Positions 7,131-46,972 of a stretch of DNA of 46,983 bases are shown here, piece by piece. How positions within the stretch are numbered: position 1 is the stretch's first letter; every line of letters begins with the position of its first letter. The position numbers and the translations under genes are program-made. The DNA is from a virus (lineage: Duplodnaviria > Caudoviricetes): IMG/VR virus record IMGVR_UViG_3300037751_000148, positions 1 to 46,983 of that record, one strand, 5' to 3'. The notes under the pieces are model-generated. The model was not told the DNA's origin and made no database searches. It saw only the letters and a program-made list of their open reading frames with translations.

Positions 7131-7405
7131 TGATGCAGTACGGTTTAGCGCTTTTACTGCATCACCTAACTGCATCACCTCATAACCCCTTGATGCTGAA
7201 AATGTTTTGATGCATGTGATGCAGTGATGCAGTTATTTCTTATTCAATATATATATATATATATATATAGGGCTACAGCATCAGTAGCAGGTAGTAGGTA
7301 AGGGGGGAGAGGGGGAGAGAGGTTCAAACTCATGCATCACTGCATCAAAACGCTCTAGCCTTAGTGGCACTAGGGATAGAGCGTGATGCAGTTAGGTGAT
7401 GCAGT
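7131..7405. repeat. Putative replication origin: ten TGATGCA iterons, perfect 23-bp inverted repeat, central (AT)11
   Basis: TGATGCA/TGCATCA at 7131, 7158, 7171, 7208, 7217, 7225, 7333, 7341, 7384, 7397; 7156-7178 is the reverse complement of 7383-7405; (AT)11 at 7247-7268; noncoding and near the primase gene. Confidence 0.65.
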
Positions 7406-7407
7406 TC

Positions 7408-8460
7408 TTAAGCCGCTACTGTTTCCCACTGTTTAGGCGATAAAGTAAGTATTTGACCGCCAATTGACTCTAATTCGGTCGCTCTATCGTAAGATTCGTG
7501 GTTGTTGGCTATTTCAGTGACCGCGTTGAGGAACCCCCATTGAGAAAGATCGCCATTACGGATCAGATTACTAAGCATCGATTCTTGCTCGTTGTCCGAT
7601 AGAGCGAATTGTTTAGCAAGGGTCTGCACGGCTTCGAGTGGCTTGGAGGCCATCGGACCGTTGGCGGATTGTTGCATTGTGGATAGGATTCGTTCGAATG
7701 CACTGCCATCAGCCAATGCTTGGATGATATCCCGGATCTGGTAGCTGATCTGGAGGCGGTCCGCTTGAATGGAATCGTTGCTCCGAATGACGAAATCAGG
7801 ACAGTCGATTATCCTGGCTCCTAGATGGCGCTTTTTCATGCTACCCAGGCCGCTGATAGGCATGGTCATGCCGTTAGTACAGACTAGGCGGTAGATAAGG
7901 GGCTGGATGACTGCAGAGCCCATGCCGATCTCTGAGTTGCTAACCACGAACCCGGCTTGAACAAGATCGCCTTTGCGCACTTCGCCTTCGATTTTAGGAA
8001 ATAGGATTTTCATGTAGAGGCGCTTATCGGTAATCGCGAAGCTGGCGGGCTCTATTTGCGTCGAGACGGTGCTTAAAGCGCTCAAGGTGGCCTCAGCTAT
8101 CAGGTCGTGGTCTATGCGCTTGTAACGGTCGCTTAAGAAGGCCCTGGCATGGTTGCCAAGAGTACGTACCATTCGGCGCTCGGGTTCATTGTGAAGGATT
8201 GTGTTGACAGTATCGGAGAGCTGAGCGGGATAGTCTGTTCTCATGCGGTCATAGAACCGGGTAGGGATCTTGAGTCGAGTCGCTATCTGTTGATGCGCAT
8301 GATCCGATACCGTGAACGTGTCGGTTCCGTCTCCGACCCTGAGGATGGACATTTGTTGGTCGAATTGCATCGCCCCTGTATCAGCAACGAGATCCCGCTT
8401 GCTGTTTGACTCAGTTTCGATCTGTTGAGCGAGTTGGACTAGAGATAATGAAGTTTTCAT
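7408..8460 (-). CDS. DUF932/DUF945-family protein
   Basis: RAFLSDRYKRID, NSEIGMGS, YRLVCTNGM and WGFLNAVT motifs. Confidence 0.8.
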   Translation of the reverse strand: MKTSLSLVQLAQQIETESNSKRDLVADTGAMQFDQQMSILRVGDGTDTFTVSDHAHQQIATRLKIPTRFYDRMRTDYPAQLSDTVNTILHNEPERRMVRTLGNHARAFLSDRYKRIDHDLIAEATLSALSTVSTQIEPASFAITDKRLYMKILFPKIEGEVRKGDLVQAGFVVSNSEIGMGSAVIQPLIYRLVCTNGMTMPISGLGSMKKRHLGARIIDCPDFVIRSNDSIQADRLQISYQIRDIIQALADGSAFERILSTMQQSANGPMASKPLEAVQTLAKQFALSDNEQESMLSNLIRNGDLSQWGFLNAVTEIANNHESYDRATELESIGGQILTLSPKQWETVAA

Positions 8461-8472
8461 GATTTTAACCCT

Positions 8473-8985
8473 TTAGATTAGGTTGTTTGATGCAAATGAG
8501 AATGAGCCTTCGTGGGTCACTATAATATGATCCAGCACCTGAATATCGAACATGAACAGACAGTCTTTAATTGCTGTAGTCAGTGTTCTATCGGCTTGAG
8601 AAGGGACCAGACTGCCCGATGGGTGATTGTGGGAGAGGATAACGGCAGACGCATTTAGCAGTAGTGCAGATTTCGCTATTTCACGAGGGTAGACAGAAGC
8701 TCTGGATACTGTTCCCAAGGCTTCGTCTTTTATCTCAATAACTCTGTGCTGATTATCGAGATAGGCAACGCTCATTACTTCGCGTTCGCCGCCTCCTATG
8801 CGAAGGCGGAATAGATTCTTAGCTGTATCAGCGTCGGTTATTCTCGGACCGGCTTCCCTCATGCGGGATTCTAAGATCCGTAAAGCGTGACGTATAACAC
8901 TATCGTCGGACGACACACTACCTGCAGAATTGCTAACTGAGCAATAAACTGGCGCATCTTCAGTATTGATGGTTTTTGTGTTCAT
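8473..8985 (-). CDS. radC: RadC-like JAB/MPN domain protein
   Basis: ERE...YLDNQHRVI, GTVSRASVYPREI, HNHPSG...PSQAD...VLDHIIV. Confidence 0.92.
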   Translation of the reverse strand: MNTKTINTEDAPVYCSVSNSAGSVSSDDSVIRHALRILESRMREAGPRITDADTAKNLFRLRIGGGEREVMSVAYLDNQHRVIEIKDEALGTVSRASVYPREIAKSALLLNASAVILSHNHPSGSLVPSQADRTLTTAIKDCLFMFDIQVLDHIIVTHEGSFSFASNNLI

Positions 8986-24078: not shown

Positions 24079-24256
24079 TGTTTCTGCCTGCGATACGGTT
24101 ATTAAGGGGTTCGGCCTGGTACGGGACAAGGACGGCAAGCCAAAGATCGATGACCCAAAAAATCTGCCTATCGAGATCTACAACATGCTGACCGACGAGG
24201 AGAAGATTTCGTTTCCTAGAGATGGCGCTTACAGAGTCGGTGGAGATGAGCGATAA
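24071..24256 (+). CDS. Hypothetical protein
   Basis: GTG start after AGGAGG. Confidence 0.55.
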   Translation: MSNVSACDTVIKGFGLVRDKDGKPKIDDPKNLPIEIYNMLTDEEKISFPRDGAYRVGGDER

Positions 24257-25067
24257 AACAGCAGAGTTTTTTAAGCGTCATAGCAAGGTAGTTCTATACC
24301 TATCGGCAGGGAAGGACTCGGCATCCTGCCTATGGCTCTTGGAGCCTTACTGGGACCGGATGACCGTCATGTGGGCAAACCCTGGCAACCCGTACCCTGA
24401 GACTGTCGCCTACATGGAATGGATAGCTGGTATGGTTCCGAACTTTGTTGAGGTGAGAGGTAACCAACCCGATTGGGTTAAGAAGTTCGGGCACCCGGTA
24501 GATATACTCCCTGTCTTAGACTCCCCGGTCATGCCTATCCCTGGCAACGAGAAGAACCCGAAGCTGCAGCCGGTCTATAACTGCTGTTTCGATAACTTCT
24601 GGAAACCAGCGATGGACTGGGTTGAGGCGAACGGGTTCACAGGTGTCATACGCGGGCAGAAGGTCTGTGACAGCCTCAGGACTACCTTACTAAGTGGTCA
24701 ATGGGATAATGGGAAGGAGTTCTACCACCCCATCGAAGACTGGGACAACGAACGTGTGATGAGGTATCTTGGTGACCGCGTACCGGATTCTTACAAGAGG
24801 GGTCTAAAATCGTCCCTCGACTGCATGAACTGCACAGCCTATGTTAAGGAGAGTCCGGGCAGGATCTCTGATCTCGCTCTTATCGATCCGTCTGCAGCTC
24901 AAGAGGTTCGTCGGATACACGCATACGTCAGGGAAAAAGCAATGGACGCAATACAGGCTATGGAAGGACCGGTACCCTATGTTCCGGAGACTCTAGGGCT
25001 TCAGAGAGCAATCGAAACTGCACAGCAAAACCTACTTAAAGAACGAGGAACTGGATCATGGCACTGA
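24246..25067 (+). CDS. PAPS/APS reductase-family (PP-loop) protein
   Basis: LSAGKDS PP-loop; CC..NFWKP; IRGQK..D; HPIEDW; SLDCMNCT. Confidence 0.85.
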   Translation: MSDKTAEFFKRHSKVVLYLSAGKDSASCLWLLEPYWDRMTVMWANPGNPYPETVAYMEWIAGMVPNFVEVRGNQPDWVKKFGHPVDILPVLDSPVMPIPGNEKNPKLQPVYNCCFDNFWKPAMDWVEANGFTGVIRGQKVCDSLRTTLLSGQWDNGKEFYHPIEDWDNERVMRYLGDRVPDSYKRGLKSSLDCMNCTAYVKESPGRISDLALIDPSAAQEVRRIHAYVREKAMDAIQAMEGPVPYVPETLGLQRAIETAQQNLLKERGTGSWH

Positions 25068-38054: not shown

Positions 38055-38646
38055 ATGCGTCGATGCGCAATTTTGATCCACGGCTTTCAACGTAACTGAT
38101 GGCGGGCAGGGCACTGTCAATTCGTTGGCACCGTTCTTCGAGGCGCTTGGCGTCACGCCTATCATTGTCAGGTACGGGTATTTCTTCCTGTTACAGACCA
38201 GGCTTAGGAATGACAACGTAGCAAGGAAAGTATGCGCTGCCGTGAAGGCGGCTCGTTTCAACTACGACGAGATTTACGTGGTTGGGCATAGCAATGGGTG
38301 CTCCATCGCAGAGCTGGCCTCTAGGATGCCCGGATTCAGCTGTGATGGGTTTACATTCATCAGCCCTGCCCTGAGGAGGGACCAGCCGCTACAGCCTGGC
38401 GTAGCGAAGCTGCACGTATGGCACAGCCCATCTGACCTCCCTGTCAGCCTGACCAAGTACCTTCCGTTCCGGGGCAACTGGGGCAGGATGGGAGCTGTCG
38501 GGTATAAGGGGGCACCAGATAGCAGGATCGTGAACTTCAACAAGGAAAGGGATTTTCTCCTATCCAGCAAGTCGCACTCGGACGTTTTTGAATATGACCT
38601 GATACCGTACTTCGGACCGGTCATAGCCGAAAAGACAGTCTCTTAA
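38055..38646 (+). pseudogene. Alpha/beta hydrolase (lipase-like) interrupted by a +1 frameshift
   Basis: AGGAGG SD and ATG at 38055 give MRRCAILIHGF then a stop at 38097; the +1 frame continues NVTDGGQGTVNSLAPFF...VVGHSNG...HS. Confidence 0.7.
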
Positions 38647-38765
38647 CGTCGATTCCGTGACCTATATCATACTTTGGACACAAGGTCAGTGACCTCCAGA
38701 ACGAGGTTAACTTGCAACGGATTCTCGCTGGTCAGCGGGGAAACGGTCAGGGCTGAGGGTAGCAC

Positions 38766-39035
38766 TCAGGAGCCTGTAGTTCTGGGCTCCTTCTCCTCCG
38801 GAGGAGTCATCCAAGTAGCAGCTTCCAACCAGTTGCTGTACTTGGATACTGCCCCTACAGCGTCTTGGAGTCTCCTTTCCCTGTCTTCGATAATAAAGTC
38901 CTTGGCAGCACTCCAAGTCTCGAACGCGTAATCCAAAGCACCGGCAAAATTTTCGAACCCCTCAGTTGGGACCTTCTTCGTTATTTTAGGGAATGCGTTG
39001 TCTAGGTTACTAACTACGTATTTTTCTTCCATCAC
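38766..39035 (-). CDS. Hypothetical protein
   Basis: 89-aa ORF; last gene of the minus-strand arm. Confidence 0.55.
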   Translation of the reverse strand: MMEEKYVVSNLDNAFPKITKKVPTEGFENFAGALDYAFETWSAAKDFIIEDRERRLQDAVGAVSKYSNWLEAATWMTPPEEKEPRTTGS

Positions 39036-39235
39036 TCGACCCTCAGCAAATTGCCATTTTCATCCGTCTCCCACTCCGGGTGCGGCTCTGCGGTTTCAGG
39101 GTGGCAGAACTCGCCGCAACTATCGCAGTGCTCTCCACTTGGTGAGTGGCAGTCCCTGGTAGCGTAGCGCCAAGATGTATTGCAATCGACGTTCTCACAT
39201 TCGAAATATCGATACCCTGGTACTGGCTTTCTCAT
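39032..39235 (-). CDS. Small zinc-ribbon protein
   Basis: CENVDC...RDCHSPSGEHCDSCG. Confidence 0.65.
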   Translation of the reverse strand: MRKPVPGYRYFECENVDCNTSWRYATRDCHSPSGEHCDSCGEFCHPETAEPHPEWETDENGNLLRVE

Positions 39236-39387
39236 ATGCCTGTCACTCCAAAGTTAAAGCGCCATTGAAGCCTTATGCTCGTCAACGGACCACGAGTGGC
39301 TTGTAACTCACGGATATAGTGCCCGGGTCCGCTGAGTGCAACTAAAAGCTGCCTGAGAGCCAGTGCGTTCACTGTTATAGTTTCCAT
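39232..39387 (-). CDS. Hypothetical protein (51 aa; first gene downstream of attC-like site A)
   Basis: Hand translation METITVNALALRQLLVALSGPGHYIRELQATRGP...; GAGG SD; ATGA coupling to the next gene. Confidence 0.6.
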   Translation of the reverse strand: METITVNALALRQLLVALSGPGHYIRELQATRGPLTSIRLQWRFNFGVTGI

Positions 39388-39400
39388 ATTTACCTCTACG

Positions 39401-39461
39401 CCATAACAAATCGTTGTAATCGGACTGCAAACATCGCAGCCGCTAAACTCTGCCGTTAGGC
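39401..39461 (+). mobile_element. attC: attC-like recombination site A
   Basis: CCATAAC-AAATC-GTTGTAAT-CGGACTGC...GCAGCC-GCTAAAC-TCTGCC-GTTAGGC (R'', 5-nt spacer, L'', stem-loop, L', 6-nt spacer, R'). Confidence 0.8.
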
Positions 39462-39686
39462 GCTATCAGTAATCGTCAGAATACGACCGTCAGCTAAGTC
39501 GATTCTCCCTTGTTGAGTTCCATGACCGCAGCAGCAAGCCACGGTGTAAACACCTCCTGCATTCAATGCAGCAACAATATGATGAATGCACCAATCAATA
39601 CTGTGCACCTTTCCATTTATGGGCATTACAACTTGGTTCTCATACGTCGTTTTGCCGCCGCATTCATCGCATCTTTTACATGTCAT
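39456..39686 (-). CDS. Cassette gene, Cys/His-rich hypothetical protein
   Basis: IDWCIHHIVAALNAGGVYTVACCCGHG; stop TAA lies inside R' of site A. Confidence 0.75.
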   Translation of the reverse strand: MTCKRCDECGGKTTYENQVVMPINGKVHSIDWCIHHIVAALNAGGVYTVACCCGHGTQQGRIDLADGRILTITDSA

Positions 39687-39697
39687 ATTCGATCACC

Positions 39698-39919
39698 CTA
39701 ATTTTCTTCATCAACATTATCGAGTAACGCCTTTTTAAATCGCTCAATCAGCCAAAGCGCATCGCCGCCATCGGCATAAGTGCTGCTAAAAAACTCGTTA
39801 CCATCCAAATCATAACCGGCGAGAACGAAGCCCTTTAACTTTCCATCCAGGTTTTTTAACGTCAAATCCGCATCCGAATCTAGCGTAGTAATTACCGGCA
39901 ATTGAATTACGTTGCTCAA
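39698..39919 (-). CDS. Cassette gene, hypothetical protein (73 aa)
   Basis: Likely TTG start at 39919 after GGAGA; the ORF-track extension is a translation through attC B. Confidence 0.7.
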   Translation of the reverse strand: MSNVIQLPVITTLDSDADLTLKNLDGKLKGFVLAGYDLDGNEFFSSTYADGGDALWLIERFKKALLDNVDEEN

Positions 39920-39937
39920 TATTTTTCTCCAATAATC

Positions 39938-39999
39938 GCCTAACAAGGCGCTCAATCGGACCGGCAAACACCGCTGGCCGCTTAGCTTAATCATTAGGC
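39938..39999 (+). mobile_element. attC: attC-like recombination site B (R' core ATT instead of GTT)
   Basis: GCCTAAC-AAGGC-GCTCAATC-GGACCGGC...GCTGGCC-GCTTAGC-TTAATC-ATTAGGC. Confidence 0.8.
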
Positions 40000-40269
40000 G
40001 TCCTCTAGCTCATCGACGCCGAGTTCACCATTTTCTAACATCGCAGTGACAGCATCATCTAACATCACGTGCACCAGGGTTGATCCATCGGCATCCTCAT
40101 TCTCCAGTTGCCGAGCAAGGCCCTCAACAAATATTGTTTTGTCTGTAATTTCGATGTCGCCGGTTCCATATCTTCGGCCTACCTCGCAGGCATGACAGAG
40201 AATATCAACACCGATTGAAACTGATAAAATTCCGTTTTCCACAGTTACTTTTAGTTGCTGGTCTTTCAT
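39994..40269 (-). CDS. Cassette gene, acidic hypothetical protein
   Basis: GGAGG SD beside attC C; stop TAA lies inside R' of site B. Confidence 0.75.
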   Translation of the reverse strand: MKDQQLKVTVENGILSVSIGVDILCHACEVGRRYGTGDIEITDKTIFVEGLARQLENEDADGSTLVHVMLDDAVTAMLENGELGVDELEDA

Positions 40270-40282
40270 ACCCCCTCCAGAC

Positions 40283-40343
40283 GCATAACCAGTTAATGAA
40301 TGGGAGCTTCGCTTCGCTCGCTCCCTTATCGCCGGCGTTAACC
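40283..40343 (+). mobile_element. attC: attC-like recombination site C
   Basis: GCATAAC-CAGTT-AATGAATG-GGAGC-TTCGCTTCGCTC-GCTC-CCTTATC-GCCGGC-GTTAACC. Confidence 0.75.
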
Positions 40344-40344
40344 G

Positions 40345-40587
40345 TCAATGTTTCCGCACCAAGCCGGTCTTGAACTCCTGCCCGTCTGGGTCGGTAACGT
40401 AGTACTCTCCGTTCTGGCACCGCACGTTCACATCAACGCCGGTCACTCGCTTAAACAGTGCCTTCACCTCTTCCGCCCCGTCGCAGCGAGGTAGTGGCGG
40501 CTTAGGGCACACTCCGCTGTTGCCGTGGAACTTGAACATTTCCTCGCCATCCGGCATAGGTTCTCCGCACAATTTGCACTTGCTCAT
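40345..40587 (-). CDS. Cassette gene, hypothetical protein
   Basis: CKLCGEPMPDGEEMFKFHG..G.CPKPPL; AAGGA SD; ends 1 nt before site C. Confidence 0.75.
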   Translation of the reverse strand: MSKCKLCGEPMPDGEEMFKFHGNSGVCPKPPLPRCDGAEEVKALFKRVTGVDVNVRCQNGEYYVTDPDGQEFKTGLVRKH

Positions 40588-40613
40588 CTTGTTTCCTTTC
40601 TCGCCGGAAAATC

Positions 40614-40651
40614 GGCTAACAAATCACTGGTTTTAAACACTGTGGTTAAGT
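40614..40651 (+). mobile_element. Partial/truncated attC-like site D (array boundary)
   Basis: GGCTAAC-AAATC-ACTG matches an attC left half; GTTAAGT at 40645-40651 but no full L'/stem. Confidence 0.5.
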
Positions 40652-40665
40652 GGCCGTCCCTGGCC
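40652..40665 (-). promoter_or_regulatory. CsrA/RsmA-type binding hairpin
   Basis: The mRNA reads GGCC-AGGGAC-GGCC, an ANGGAN hexaloop closed by C-G. Confidence 0.5.
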
Positions 40666-40673
40666 GATCAGCC

Positions 40674-41846
40674 CTAGCCCCACTGTTCCAAGATGGAGTT
40701 CAGATCGGTACCGTGTGGGTCCGAAGGCTGCTGGAAGTAACCAGACCCAGCCGGGCCATCCGGGTTCTTTGCTACGGTAGCTTCTGGTTCCGACTCAACG
40801 AAGCCAGACCCCGCCGCCGCCGGTTGCGCTGCTACTCGGGGAGAGGCCGCATCAGCTTGCTTATTTCCTTTCCGAGCGCGCCACGCTCCATTCGCTGTCA
40901 GAGTCTTGTTGGCCGAGTGCCTGGCCGCGTCCCAGATCTCTCCGTTAGAATCGACCTCAGGACCGGCCTTCTGCTCAACGATGCCGCCGTACCCGCTTTC
41001 TGCCGCGCCTCGGGGATCGCCATAGACACCGGCCCTAGCCAGGGTATTCGTCTGTTCTGGATCAGGGTCTGGTGTCTCTAATGCCTTAACATAGTCGGGA
41101 ACATCCGGAACGTCGGCAGTCTCTTCGACCGGTCCCGCCGCTGCATTCTGGATGATTGACTGGATCTCTTCAGACGAAGCCCTGGCAACGGCTGCACCAG
41201 TCTCAGCCTCTGGCATAAACCCGCCTAGCGAGAACTTTATCTGTGGGAACTCCGCATCCTCAACGAAGGAGACTTTCGTAATGCAAGCCTGCACTGGTAC
41301 GCCGTGAGATTTAAGAGCCCGGCCGTAGGAGGTCAGTGCCTTAAGACTCATGGTTGGAACCTGCAACATGAACACATCGCCCTTGCCGGGGTTGTTTGGC
41401 GGCACAACATAGAGCCGCTTAACGTCGTGACATGCCTTCCCTTTGGTAGGGTTGCCGTGTGAGTCCATGCCACTGCCCCACTGGTTCATCGGGCACGTTG
41501 CACAGTTGGCGCACTGTGGTTCATCAACAAAGGTATCCGGGCGGATGCCGTCACTGCTTGAACAGTCTGGTGGATCGTCGCTGTCCGGGGTGTATGCGCC
41601 AGAATAGTAGCTCTTGGCGCAATACTTACCGGGTGGATCTGCCAGTAGAACCACAATATTGAGAGGTTGCCCCATAGACAGGGAACTCTCAGTACCGTCC
41701 TTTTTAAACCGGAACACTTTGCCTCGAAGGCTGATCCTCGGGAAAGACTCACGCTGCGTTATCAGCGATTCGTTGGAGTCCGTCCCGTAGTTCTTCAGGT
41801 ACGCCGGTAGTTGCATGCTTTCTGGAATGATCAGATCGTTAGCCAT
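40674..41846 (-). CDS. Putative ssDNA-binding/annealing protein with C-terminal accessory domain
   Basis: PRISLRGKVFR, PDCSSSDGIRPD, CATCPMNQWGS..GKAC, LQVPTMSLK; later WDAARHS...NGAWR; acidic tail; within the replication module. Confidence 0.7.
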   Translation of the reverse strand: MANDLIIPESMQLPAYLKNYGTDSNESLITQRESFPRISLRGKVFRFKKDGTESSLSMGQPLNIVVLLADPPGKYCAKSYYSGAYTPDSDDPPDCSSSDGIRPDTFVDEPQCANCATCPMNQWGSGMDSHGNPTKGKACHDVKRLYVVPPNNPGKGDVFMLQVPTMSLKALTSYGRALKSHGVPVQACITKVSFVEDAEFPQIKFSLGGFMPEAETGAAVARASSEEIQSIIQNAAAGPVEETADVPDVPDYVKALETPDPDPEQTNTLARAGVYGDPRGAAESGYGGIVEQKAGPEVDSNGEIWDAARHSANKTLTANGAWRARKGNKQADAASPRVAAQPAAAGSGFVESEPEATVAKNPDGPAGSGYFQQPSDPHGTDLNSILEQWG

Positions 41847-44846: not shown

Positions 44847-45527
44847 CTACACCCCTCTAGCATACTTGCACTGAGCCTTGTTACAGGGGCACCATCGGCA
44901 ATTGAAGTCCGAAGGGTTCGCCTGCCAAGAGTTGCTGTCACTGGCAATCTGGATCATCTCTGCTCGCTCCTCAAACTCCTCAATGAGTGCTGGCAGCTCG
45001 CCACGGTTATAGGATGCCGTCGTCTTGGTCTTGTGATCAACCCAGACATAGTGAGTGCCGACGTAATCCACCTGAGGGTGCAACAGCATGGCCGACATTC
45101 CAAACAACTTGAGCTGGTCACTGCTCTCCCTGACCTTGCCAGTCTTCCAGTCGATGATTGACGCCTTGTCACCGTGTGTCAGGATTACGTCATAGATAAC
45201 CCTCAGGTAGGCGTCCGCCGCGAACCAGCTGCACTGAGTATAGCCCCTGGTGAACGCTATCTGTTGCTCCACTCGGACATTCCAATCGTTCTTTGCCTGC
45301 AACTGGATGCCCGCAACCACTGGCTCCACGCTCCGAAGTTCGTAAGGAACTGGCTTGCCTCCAACCGCCAGCTCAAGATCCTTGTGAGCCTTCTTGCCAC
45401 GTAGCGTTGCTTCGTTGTCTGTGAACGGGATTCTCTGCCCCTTAGGGGCAAAGTTCTTCCAGTAGCACAGGAGCGGGCACTTTTCGAAGTCGGACAGTCG
45501 GCTCCATGAGTAGGCTATCTGAGTCAT
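44847..45527 (-). CDS. PD-(D/E)XK exonuclease (Cas4/RecB-like)
   Basis: SWSRLSDFEKCP, RGKKAH, IIDWKTGK, QLKLF, CRWCP...C. Confidence 0.88.
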   Translation of the reverse strand: MTQIAYSWSRLSDFEKCPLLCYWKNFAPKGQRIPFTDNEATLRGKKAHKDLELAVGGKPVPYELRSVEPVVAGIQLQAKNDWNVRVEQQIAFTRGYTQCSWFAADAYLRVIYDVILTHGDKASIIDWKTGKVRESSDQLKLFGMSAMLLHPQVDYVGTHYVWVDHKTKTTASYNRGELPALIEEFEERAEMIQIASDSNSWQANPSDFNCRWCPCNKAQCKYARGV

Positions 45528-45970
45528 ACCGGTGCCCCACGGTGGGACAGAAGATTACCGCCTCTCTCTTTTATCCGGTCGAATACTTCATCCCTGTGAA
45601 TGGATACGTCAGACGGAGCCGTGATCCCTACTTTAATGCCTCGTCTGTCCATAGCCAGTACCTCGAAGAATACCCTCCCATATACGGAACTGCCACCCGC
45701 CCCTTCGATCTCAAAGACAATGCCTTCTCCGATCTTTAAATGTTCCGTCGCTTGGAGACTTCCGTGAGCGGATGTTTCTAAAACGATCGGAGTCCCACGC
45801 TCGAATACGCTCCCCGGAGTGACGGATAGTCCCTTCCTAGCAAGTATTCCCCGATGTGGTTCCATCTCGATATAGAGAACAGCCGTTTTCCCTGTTGAGC
45901 GAACCTCTACAGTGATTAGCTCGTCACCGATTATTACAGACCTCCCCGCCTTTATCGAAAGTACTAGCAT
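45524..45970 (-). CDS. csrA: Tandem CsrA/RsmA-like RNA-binding protein
   Basis: N-terminal MLVLSIKAGRSVIIGDELITVEV and C-terminal IKVGITAPSDVSIHRDEVFDRI both align to CsrA. Confidence 0.8.
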   Translation of the reverse strand: MLVLSIKAGRSVIIGDELITVEVRSTGKTAVLYIEMEPHRGILARKGLSVTPGSVFERGTPIVLETSAHGSLQATEHLKIGEGIVFEIEGAGGSSVYGRVFFEVLAMDRRGIKVGITAPSDVSIHRDEVFDRIKERGGNLLSHRGAPV

Positions 45971-46846: not shown

Positions 46847-46972
46847 CTGCCGGTATAGGCTACCGATACCGTATCTGAGGGAGGGCCTGAAACAGACGCG
46901 CCTTTCTACGAACTCTTTGACCTTGGCAAAGCTCTCCTTCATCCTCGATCCGGGTTCTACGGTTGGTGGAAC
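46847..46972. repeat. Terminal direct repeat, copy 2
   Basis: Identical to 1-126; the last 11 nt of the window diverge. Confidence 0.95.

Follow-up and report, generated by a model that had tools for sequence, protein, structure and literature searches.

An attC array without an integrase and with its genes on the bottom strand in a phage genome, probably derived from mirror-image phage integrons

We analysed an array of short genes and attC sites at the end of an early operon in a phage genome (Duplodnaviria; Caudoviricetes; IMG/VR record IMGVR_UViG_3300037751_000148). The window, that is, the whole stretch of DNA that was analysed, is the whole phage record of 46,983 bp. An earlier note, made from the letters of the sequence, had described the region as an integron-like gene cassette array in a phage genome with no integrase. 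Four sites, denoted A to D, separate the genes. Site A (39401-39461, 61 nt), site B (39938-39999, 62 nt) and site C (40283-40343, 61 nt) are imperfect palindromes whose bottom strand is the - strand of the window. Their cores, spacers and L boxes are as the earlier note had given them for three palindromes of 61-62 nt with attC anatomy starting at 39401, 39938 and 40283. Lengths of attC sites range from about 57 to 141 nt; the three palindromes lie inside this range and site D (40614-40651, - strand, 38 nt) lies outside it. Site D had been taken for a half site. The core at 40614 is there, but both cores are kept and the site has collapsed to 38 nt, with most of the central stem gone.

All five open reading frames (ORFs) of the array are on the - strand. 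The + strand is the top strand of the attC sites, and the genes therefore lie on the attC bottom strand. A canonical cassette has its ORF on the attC top strand; here 5/5 ORFs are on the bottom strand. Each gene has a ribosome-binding site (RBS) right after its upstream site and a stop codon in or beside the core of the downstream site. Gene D (40345..40587, 80 aa), for which site D is the upstream site in transcription, stops just ahead of the core of site C. Gene C (39994..40269, 91 aa, phrog_21508-like) has its RBS after site C and a TAA stop inside the core of site B. The next cassette has two genes, B1 (39698..39919, 73 aa from a TTG start, phrog_11040) followed by the Cys-rich B2 (39456..39686, 76 aa), which ends with a TAA stop inside the core of site A. 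Gene A (39232..39387, 51 aa) belongs to the last cassette, the end of which is not clear. It matches just positions 15-42 of the 84-position phrog_31465 and is probably truncated. Pfam gave no match for the cargo genes; in the ESM Atlas gene C had no match and B2 matched unnamed viral clusters only. Reading these genes as cassettes bounded at cores held up well, and what had been missed is their polarity.

In order to score the sites, we used a covariance model, denoted R1, of the bottom strands of bacterial attC sites. GTDB was searched with a pattern derived from sites A and B, and 48 sites that do not match the pattern were taken from GTDB loci with at least 3 strict sites; the 7 longest were dropped and 41 were aligned. 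An IntI over the TIGR02249 cut-off is encoded in 8 of those GTDB loci. The R1 strand was assigned as the bottom strand since the consensus is laid out like the bottom strand of aadA7 printed in Table S3 of Qi et al. 2023. As a cross-check, in loci with IntI the R1 matches share the strand of intI and are located upstream of it. In an unfiltered search of the whole window, R1 matched sites A, B and C only, all on the - strand, with 46.1 bits for B (E 5e-10), 38.6 bits for A (5e-8) and a weak 18.7 bits for C (0.01). The next-best score in the window was 10.8 bits. The earlier note had named a covariance-model search as a check on its sites, and the three palindromes are recovered with these graded scores. 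Site D had no R1 match, and L boxes or extrahelical bases are not discernible in it. In the other three sites the L'' and L' boxes and bottom-strand extrahelical bases are present: B has the canonical G and T, as in the model, and in A and C a C replaces the extrahelical G. Site A has a 9-nt L''. The crossover is G^TT in A, C and D, in agreement with the earlier note, but A^TT in B.

Two other detectors were set aside. Loose regex-and-fold attC detectors were too noisy, with 47 matches in one scan and 10-21 matches in random controls in another, and gave way to the covariance model, and a profile hidden Markov model (HMM) for attC missed site C. Rfam had no match in the window, a BLASTN search of site A against phages gave chance matches only, and no match was found among plasmids. 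A site like A with different neighbours on both sides is present in sequencing run X2.

The complementarity of the cores was calculated over 9 nt beyond the crossover. The right core of A and the left core of B complement each other in 8/9 positions (5/9 within the own site), the right core of B and the left core of C also in 8/9 (own site 7/9), and the right core of C and the left core of D in 6/9 (own site 7/9); the left core of D fits A better, in 7/9. The match of each left core to the right core of the previous site, as the earlier note had it, thus stands out at A|B, is modest at B|C and does not stand out at C|D. Hairpins of this kind could in principle be palindromes that arose by chance, or could act at the level of RNA, as weak terminators or sites of processing. 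They do lie between genes of one operon and directly ahead of RBSs, and their folding energies as DNA are modest (-6.6 to -10.7 kcal/mol) with R boxes unpaired in the minimum-energy folds. RNA signals would not account for the covariance-model scores against bacterial attC, for complementarity that runs across sites rather than within them, or for the fact that such sites adjoin intI and attI in other phages, and we regard this explanation as extremely improbable.

Clusters of attC sites lacking integron integrases (CALINs) are defined by at least 2 attC sites within 3 kb, each of at least 20 bits, in a replicon with no integron integrase. Sites A and B are 477 nt apart and both score above 20 bits, on R1 and not on the model of Qi et al. 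2023. No integron integrase is present in the replicon, which has a CheckV completeness of 96%. Neither the intI nor the attI of a complete integron was found. By definition the array of the window is a CALIN, and it functions like an array of integron cassettes. It does not amount to a complete integron, nor are its cassettes of the canonical kind.

The polarity of the genes was compared between viral and bacterial arrays. The viral set consisted of 66 IMG/VR loci found with the pattern from sites A and B, of which 59 were run with R1 after removing 7 near-duplicates, and 216/221 hits were used. By the longest ORF between sites, 30 viral intervals were inverted, 18 canonical and 26 unclear, and 8 of the 18 canonical intervals came from L055, which is a bacterial-type integron in an isolate-derived contig. 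This test was ambiguous on short viral genes and was replaced by two others, one based on a Shine-Dalgarno (SD) sequence and start codon after the site and one based on PHROG matches. Without L055, an SD and start follow on the bottom strand at 141/197 viral sites, against 10/197 for the top strand; the corresponding GTDB values are 33/309 and 75/309. Voting by locus gave 50 bottom, 1 top and 8 ties for the 59 viral loci and a noisy 14 bottom, 40 top and 54 ties for 108 GTDB loci. PHROG matches of the longest ORF per viral interval were on the bottom strand in 30/117 intervals and on the top strand in 2/117. The 235 GTDB intervals comprised 182 canonical, 13 inverted and 40 unclear ones. Cassette ends are more complementary to each other than to their own site in both sets (of 6 positions, 4.52 vs 2.72 in viral arrays, n=126, and 4.78 vs 2.79 in bacterial arrays, n=177). 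The polarity test also classified two published phage CALINs, PH101 and MW202573, as inverted.

The recognisable cargo of the inverted viral arrays is led by DNA methyltransferases (14/30 PHROG matches), and further includes a Mom-like protein, a queuine tRNA-ribosyltransferase and a Lar-like protein. Methyltransferases lead the cargo across loci L002-L067 and L364-L413 (14/30, and 5/14 at IntI loci); there is none in the array of the window.

Phages also encode the integrase. We found 52 viral IntI loci, and attC matches in 23 of the 51 that were searched. In those with arrays (67/72 hits used), an SD and start follow on the bottom strand at 39/65 sites and on the top strand at 1/65, and PHROG matches are on the bottom strand in 14/39 and on the top strand in 1/38. 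The flanks of these arrays contain endolysins, tail fibres and lysogeny integrases. The IntIs of L032 and L038 pass TIGR02249, and both loci have the same layout, in which a bottom-strand cassette with a complementary core at its end is followed by an attI-like stretch and by intI. An attI motif is common to many viral IntI loci. Inverted cassettes beside a whole or truncated intI occur in L032, L038, L365-L372, L376, L382, L387, L391, L402 and L407-L412, in most of which an attI with the common motif follows the last cassette. Several viral loci keep only the start of intI, and such truncation is a way in which arrays without an integrase could arise. Among 75 IntIs in a quick tree, with only 38 rows labelled bacterial, 11/14 IntIs from inverted arrays cluster with a Shimodaira-Hasegawa-like approximate likelihood ratio test (SH-aLRT) support of 95. 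Another 14 viral IntI-like proteins (L377-L392, L401, L411) form a group that stands apart. R1 matches are nearly absent from its loci, with one hit in L384, and it may use another type of attC or be a different system.

These observations bear on the interpretation of the earlier note, in which the phage plugs into an integron of its host, and a host IntI takes up and shuffles cassettes of the host pool. The attC sites are indeed of the family found in bacterial integrons. According to the available text of Qi et al. 2023, phage attC sites serve as substrates of IntI1, and according to that of bioRxiv 10.1101/2022.09.11.507474, IntI1 also inserts at secondary sites of the form G(W)T; among sampled genomes of one phylum an IntI over the cut-off was found in 85/401. 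The available text of PMC11023631 describes how, in bacterial cassettes, the bottom-strand selectivity of recombination sets the gene for expression from the promoter Pc. Host cassettes would land antisense in an array of the opposite polarity, the cargo families are viral with no plasmid match, and phage-encoded IntIs exist. We therefore consider the host-pool version very unlikely as a whole. That these are ordinary host cassettes picked up by the phage is unlikely because the cassettes are back-to-front and carry phage-type genes. A host integrase is not established because some phages carry IntI and attI beside inverted arrays; an IntI supplied in trans could be that of a phage or of the host, and a host IntI acting on phage-type cassettes is a possible part of the explanation that we favour below.

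The phage itself appears nearly complete. A 126-nt end repeat (positions 1-126) recurs at 46847-46972 and is followed by 11 extra bases, which may be the reason why IMG/VR classifies the genome as 'linear'. It codes for a family A DNA polymerase, a primase, a helicase, an SU10-type portal, and capsid and tail proteins. The array occupies the distal end of the leftward early operon, close to the junction with the late genes. The region is present in sediment metagenome runs of 6 studies, one of which is possibly the source study, and no RNA run is listed among the sequencing runs that contain it. PHROGs and Pfam scans found no integrase among the 63 ORFs of the window, and searches of the whole genome with PF00589 and an IntI alignment found no tyrosine recombinase, in agreement with the earlier note. 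Since there is no IntI in the genome, any IntI for this array must be external; this much of the proposal of a host integrase in trans stands, and that it be the host's does not follow, as phage contigs encode IntI with attI.

The earlier note had its array begin at 39253. The G^TTAAAG core there (39253..39262, + strand) was rejected as an attI, since it ranks 1078 of 1721 AAC sites on the matrix of phage attI sites. Its complement to site A, 7/10, is equalled by 2 of 12 other nearby AAC sites. It is a possible cassette end and is unsupported as attI. A scan for Pc-type promoters gave 3 sigma-70-like sites vs 2.6 expected; a Pc reading inward from attI would transcribe these genes antisense. 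Four other features of the genome were recorded. A CsrA-like domain (PF02599) forms the C-terminus of a 148-aa phage protein at 45524-45970 (-), a DUF932 protein lies beside a RadC/JAB-domain protein in the early region at 7408-8985 (-), and a PAPS-reductase-like gene lies amid structural genes at 24222-25067 (+). Short repeated TGATGCAG/TGCATCA motifs at 7164-7238, intergenic between the primase and the early genes, are a possible origin or regulatory site.

Relatives of the cassette genes were found in other arrays. Genes D, C and B1, but not B2, belong to units that move between arrays and are bounded at cores. In 7/7 loci with full-length viral homologues of gene D (five contexts, as two duplicate pairs are among the 7), the gene stops just before a core, and an R1 match follows in 6/7, one of them weak (16.2 bits). 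These homologues are inverted cassettes with other attC neighbours, and in L457, L458 and L462 the cassette ends are 9/10 complementary with different core letters. Gene C has a 70% identical homologue in a 39.6-kb viral contig (L450) and a 67% identical one in a metagenome contig (L415), each a single-gene inverted cassette, with ends complementary in 10/10 and 8/10 positions, respectively; among six more distant gene C loci, 1 has an upstream R1 match. A 73% identical homologue of gene B1 lies alone between complementary cores, as an inverted cassette, in phage MW202573. A directly flanking attC was found in 0/80 viral homologue loci of B1, and an attC match in 0/4 of those of B2.

Breakpoints at the crossover were found in contigs of sequencing runs and between phage arrays. 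In a 108-nt contig of run X4, from another study, the final 35 nt of gene C continue into 73 nt of different sequence; the joint falls exactly ahead of 39994, and the junction 39993|39994 is the crossover. Two shorter contigs of run X5 share this breakpoint, with loose ends of only 27 and 21 letters. In a 380-nt contig of X4, gene C is 90% identical and the core upstream of it differs. An apparent joint 38115-41168 in the run contigs, with a 21-nt side, was left out of account. Of 42 ends of homology between phage arrays, 7 are no more than 3 nt from the crossover (5 at +1) and 9 no more than 10 nt from it; for the 10-nt distance, random placement gave a mean of 2.9 and at most 9 in 2000 draws. 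Loci L032 and L039 have one cassette in common, core to core. In four pairs of loci (L021/L051, L031/L056, L026/L051 and L027/L030), near-identical cassettes have only the downstream half of the attC in common and homology begins at the centre of the hairpin, which suggests that such attC sites are chimeric.

We consider it likely that the array of the window, with no integrase and with its genes on the bottom strand, comes from mirror-image integrons of phages, that its cassettes arose by IntI-type recombination and would be excised and inserted by an IntI supplied in trans, and that it is now partly decayed. Each unit would be made up of an upstream attC, an RBS and a gene. The substrate of IntI would be the coding strand in its folded form, with recombination at AA^C (G^TT in top-strand letters). 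Transcription from the early operon of the phage, rather than from an integron Pc, would extend through the genes. Where a phage integron is complete, the entry point of new cassettes would be next to intI, at the end far from the promoter. In this lineage, which is without intI and attI, only exchange between attC and attC would occur, with IntI from a co-resident phage or from the host. The array is possibly nearly frozen now because its sites are partly decayed. Reversed polarity, we infer, lets a single operon run through the array in the direction of intI, and host cassettes would become antisense in phage arrays and vice versa. If replication is co-directional with transcription, the recombinogenic strand would be on the template of the lagging strand, a position that increases excision in Vibrio according to the available text of PMC11023631.

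Several results weigh against this explanation. The viral and the GTDB loci were both seeded by the pattern from sites A and B, include some near-duplicates and are not fully independent, and the array of TJE1 is canonical, so that phage arrays are not all inverted. No remnant of intI was found in the genome by tblastn and HMM searches (best tblastn E 0.022), and no attI of the type described by the phage-attI matrix. The sites have decayed: B has A^TT, D is collapsed, A and C are without the extrahelical G, and C is below 20 bits. Because of this decay the present-day recombination activity of the array is uncertain, and the part of the earlier note in which the phage shuffles genes now is not borne out by an array with no attI, a mutated B and a collapsed D. 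Only 1/3 of the junction contigs has at least 31 letters on both sides, and no contig skipping a cassette of this phage was seen among the sequencing-run contigs examined. No close relatives were found for a comparison of the same locus, and gain or loss at the locus was not seen. In 80 loci found via a neighbouring gene (at most 44% identical) there is no attC array within 5 kb. Many homology ends lie at the centre of attC (offsets 24-45), and IntI does not explain these because its crossover is at the R box. They point to a second, possibly IntI-independent route.

In a different history, the block is a fossil taken from an IntI-bearing phage and now changes only by IntI-independent recombination or by slippage between similar hairpins. 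Besides A^TT in B, the collapse of D and the lack of attI and intI, it would fit the homology between arrays that often begins mid-attC (the four pairs given above), the unrelated upstream attCs of homologous genes, the collapsed and half sites that are found in MW202573 too, and the X4 variant of gene C, which resembles a chimera within the gene. However, cassette ends stay complementary while core letters differ among homologues, which suggests continuing selection for a recombinable circle, and junctions fall exactly at the crossover. We give the fossil a small but real chance, and keep to phage mirror-image integrons with IntI in trans as the preferred explanation.

Since relatives of these genes are boxed in this way beside different neighbours in other phages, it is likely that phages keep their own mirror-image pool of swappable genes, of which the window is a small, partly decayed example. 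A wider proposal is that phages run mirror-image integrons of their own, with a phage lineage of IntI, an attI motif of their own and a bottom-strand pool of phage genes, many of them DNA methyltransferases, that integrase-less phages tap in trans, polarity separating the phage and host pools. We put this forward tentatively and would not quite claim an even chance for it. Integrons have been treated as bacterial devices, and a reversed pool on the side of the phages, if true, would be a matching site-specific tool for turnover of accessory genes. Metagenome surveys of attC and cassette polymerase chain reactions (PCRs) would then sample both pools together. The first formation of cassettes has long been an open question. 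The family of gene B1, with no flanking attC in 80/80 viral loci and boxed here and in MW202573, provides free and boxed pairs to compare, and with the same families both free and boxed the formation of cassettes would be traceable directly, if the mirror-image pool is true. Bacterial integron cassettes, for their part, include anti-phage defences, as described in the available text of bioRxiv 10.1101/2024.07.02.601686 and 10.1101/2024.07.02.601719.

Among known systems, the closest are the CALINs of virulent phages (TJE1, PH101, P12002L and MW202573) published, with IntI1 activity on their attC sites, by Qi et al. 2023 (PMC9892861). In the available text of that paper, 17 CALINs are reported in 10,705 phages, complete integrons occur only in temperate phages or prophages, two of them called captured host integrons, and attC2 of PH101, an array of the inverted type by the polarity test, recombined with attI1 under IntI1. 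The array of the window resembles these CALINs in having at least 2 attC sites within 3 kb and no IntI, in its attC family, which is that of PH101_attC2, and in gene B1, which it has in common with MW202573. It differs from them as described in the main text of that paper, which reports no bottom-strand genes or inverted complete integrons; the figures and the Dryad annotation may show orientation. The literature searched, with subscription journals mostly not covered, contained no description of inverted phage cassettes or complete inverted phage integrons. The 'inverted integron-integrase' in the available text of Cury et al. 2016 (PMC4889954) refers to the direction of intI and not to that of the cassette ORFs. 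Insertion at secondary attG sites, as in the available text of bioRxiv 10.1101/2022.09.11.507474, could start an integrase-less array at a G(W)T, e.g. at 39253; it was shown there in E. coli chromosomes with no strand bias and does not explain a consistent inversion. With the bacterial integrons and CALINs of Cury et al. 2016, as far as the available text describes them, the array has in common the R''/L''/L'/R' anatomy, extrahelical bases on one strand, complementary ends and stop codons in the cores, and in phage loci with intI the geometry of intI, attI and attC is as usual in bacterial integrons. Unlike bacterial integrons, the array of the window has no intI or attI and no clear Pc, its ORFs are on the bottom strand, each attC is upstream of its gene on the side of the RBS, and the cargo is of phage type.
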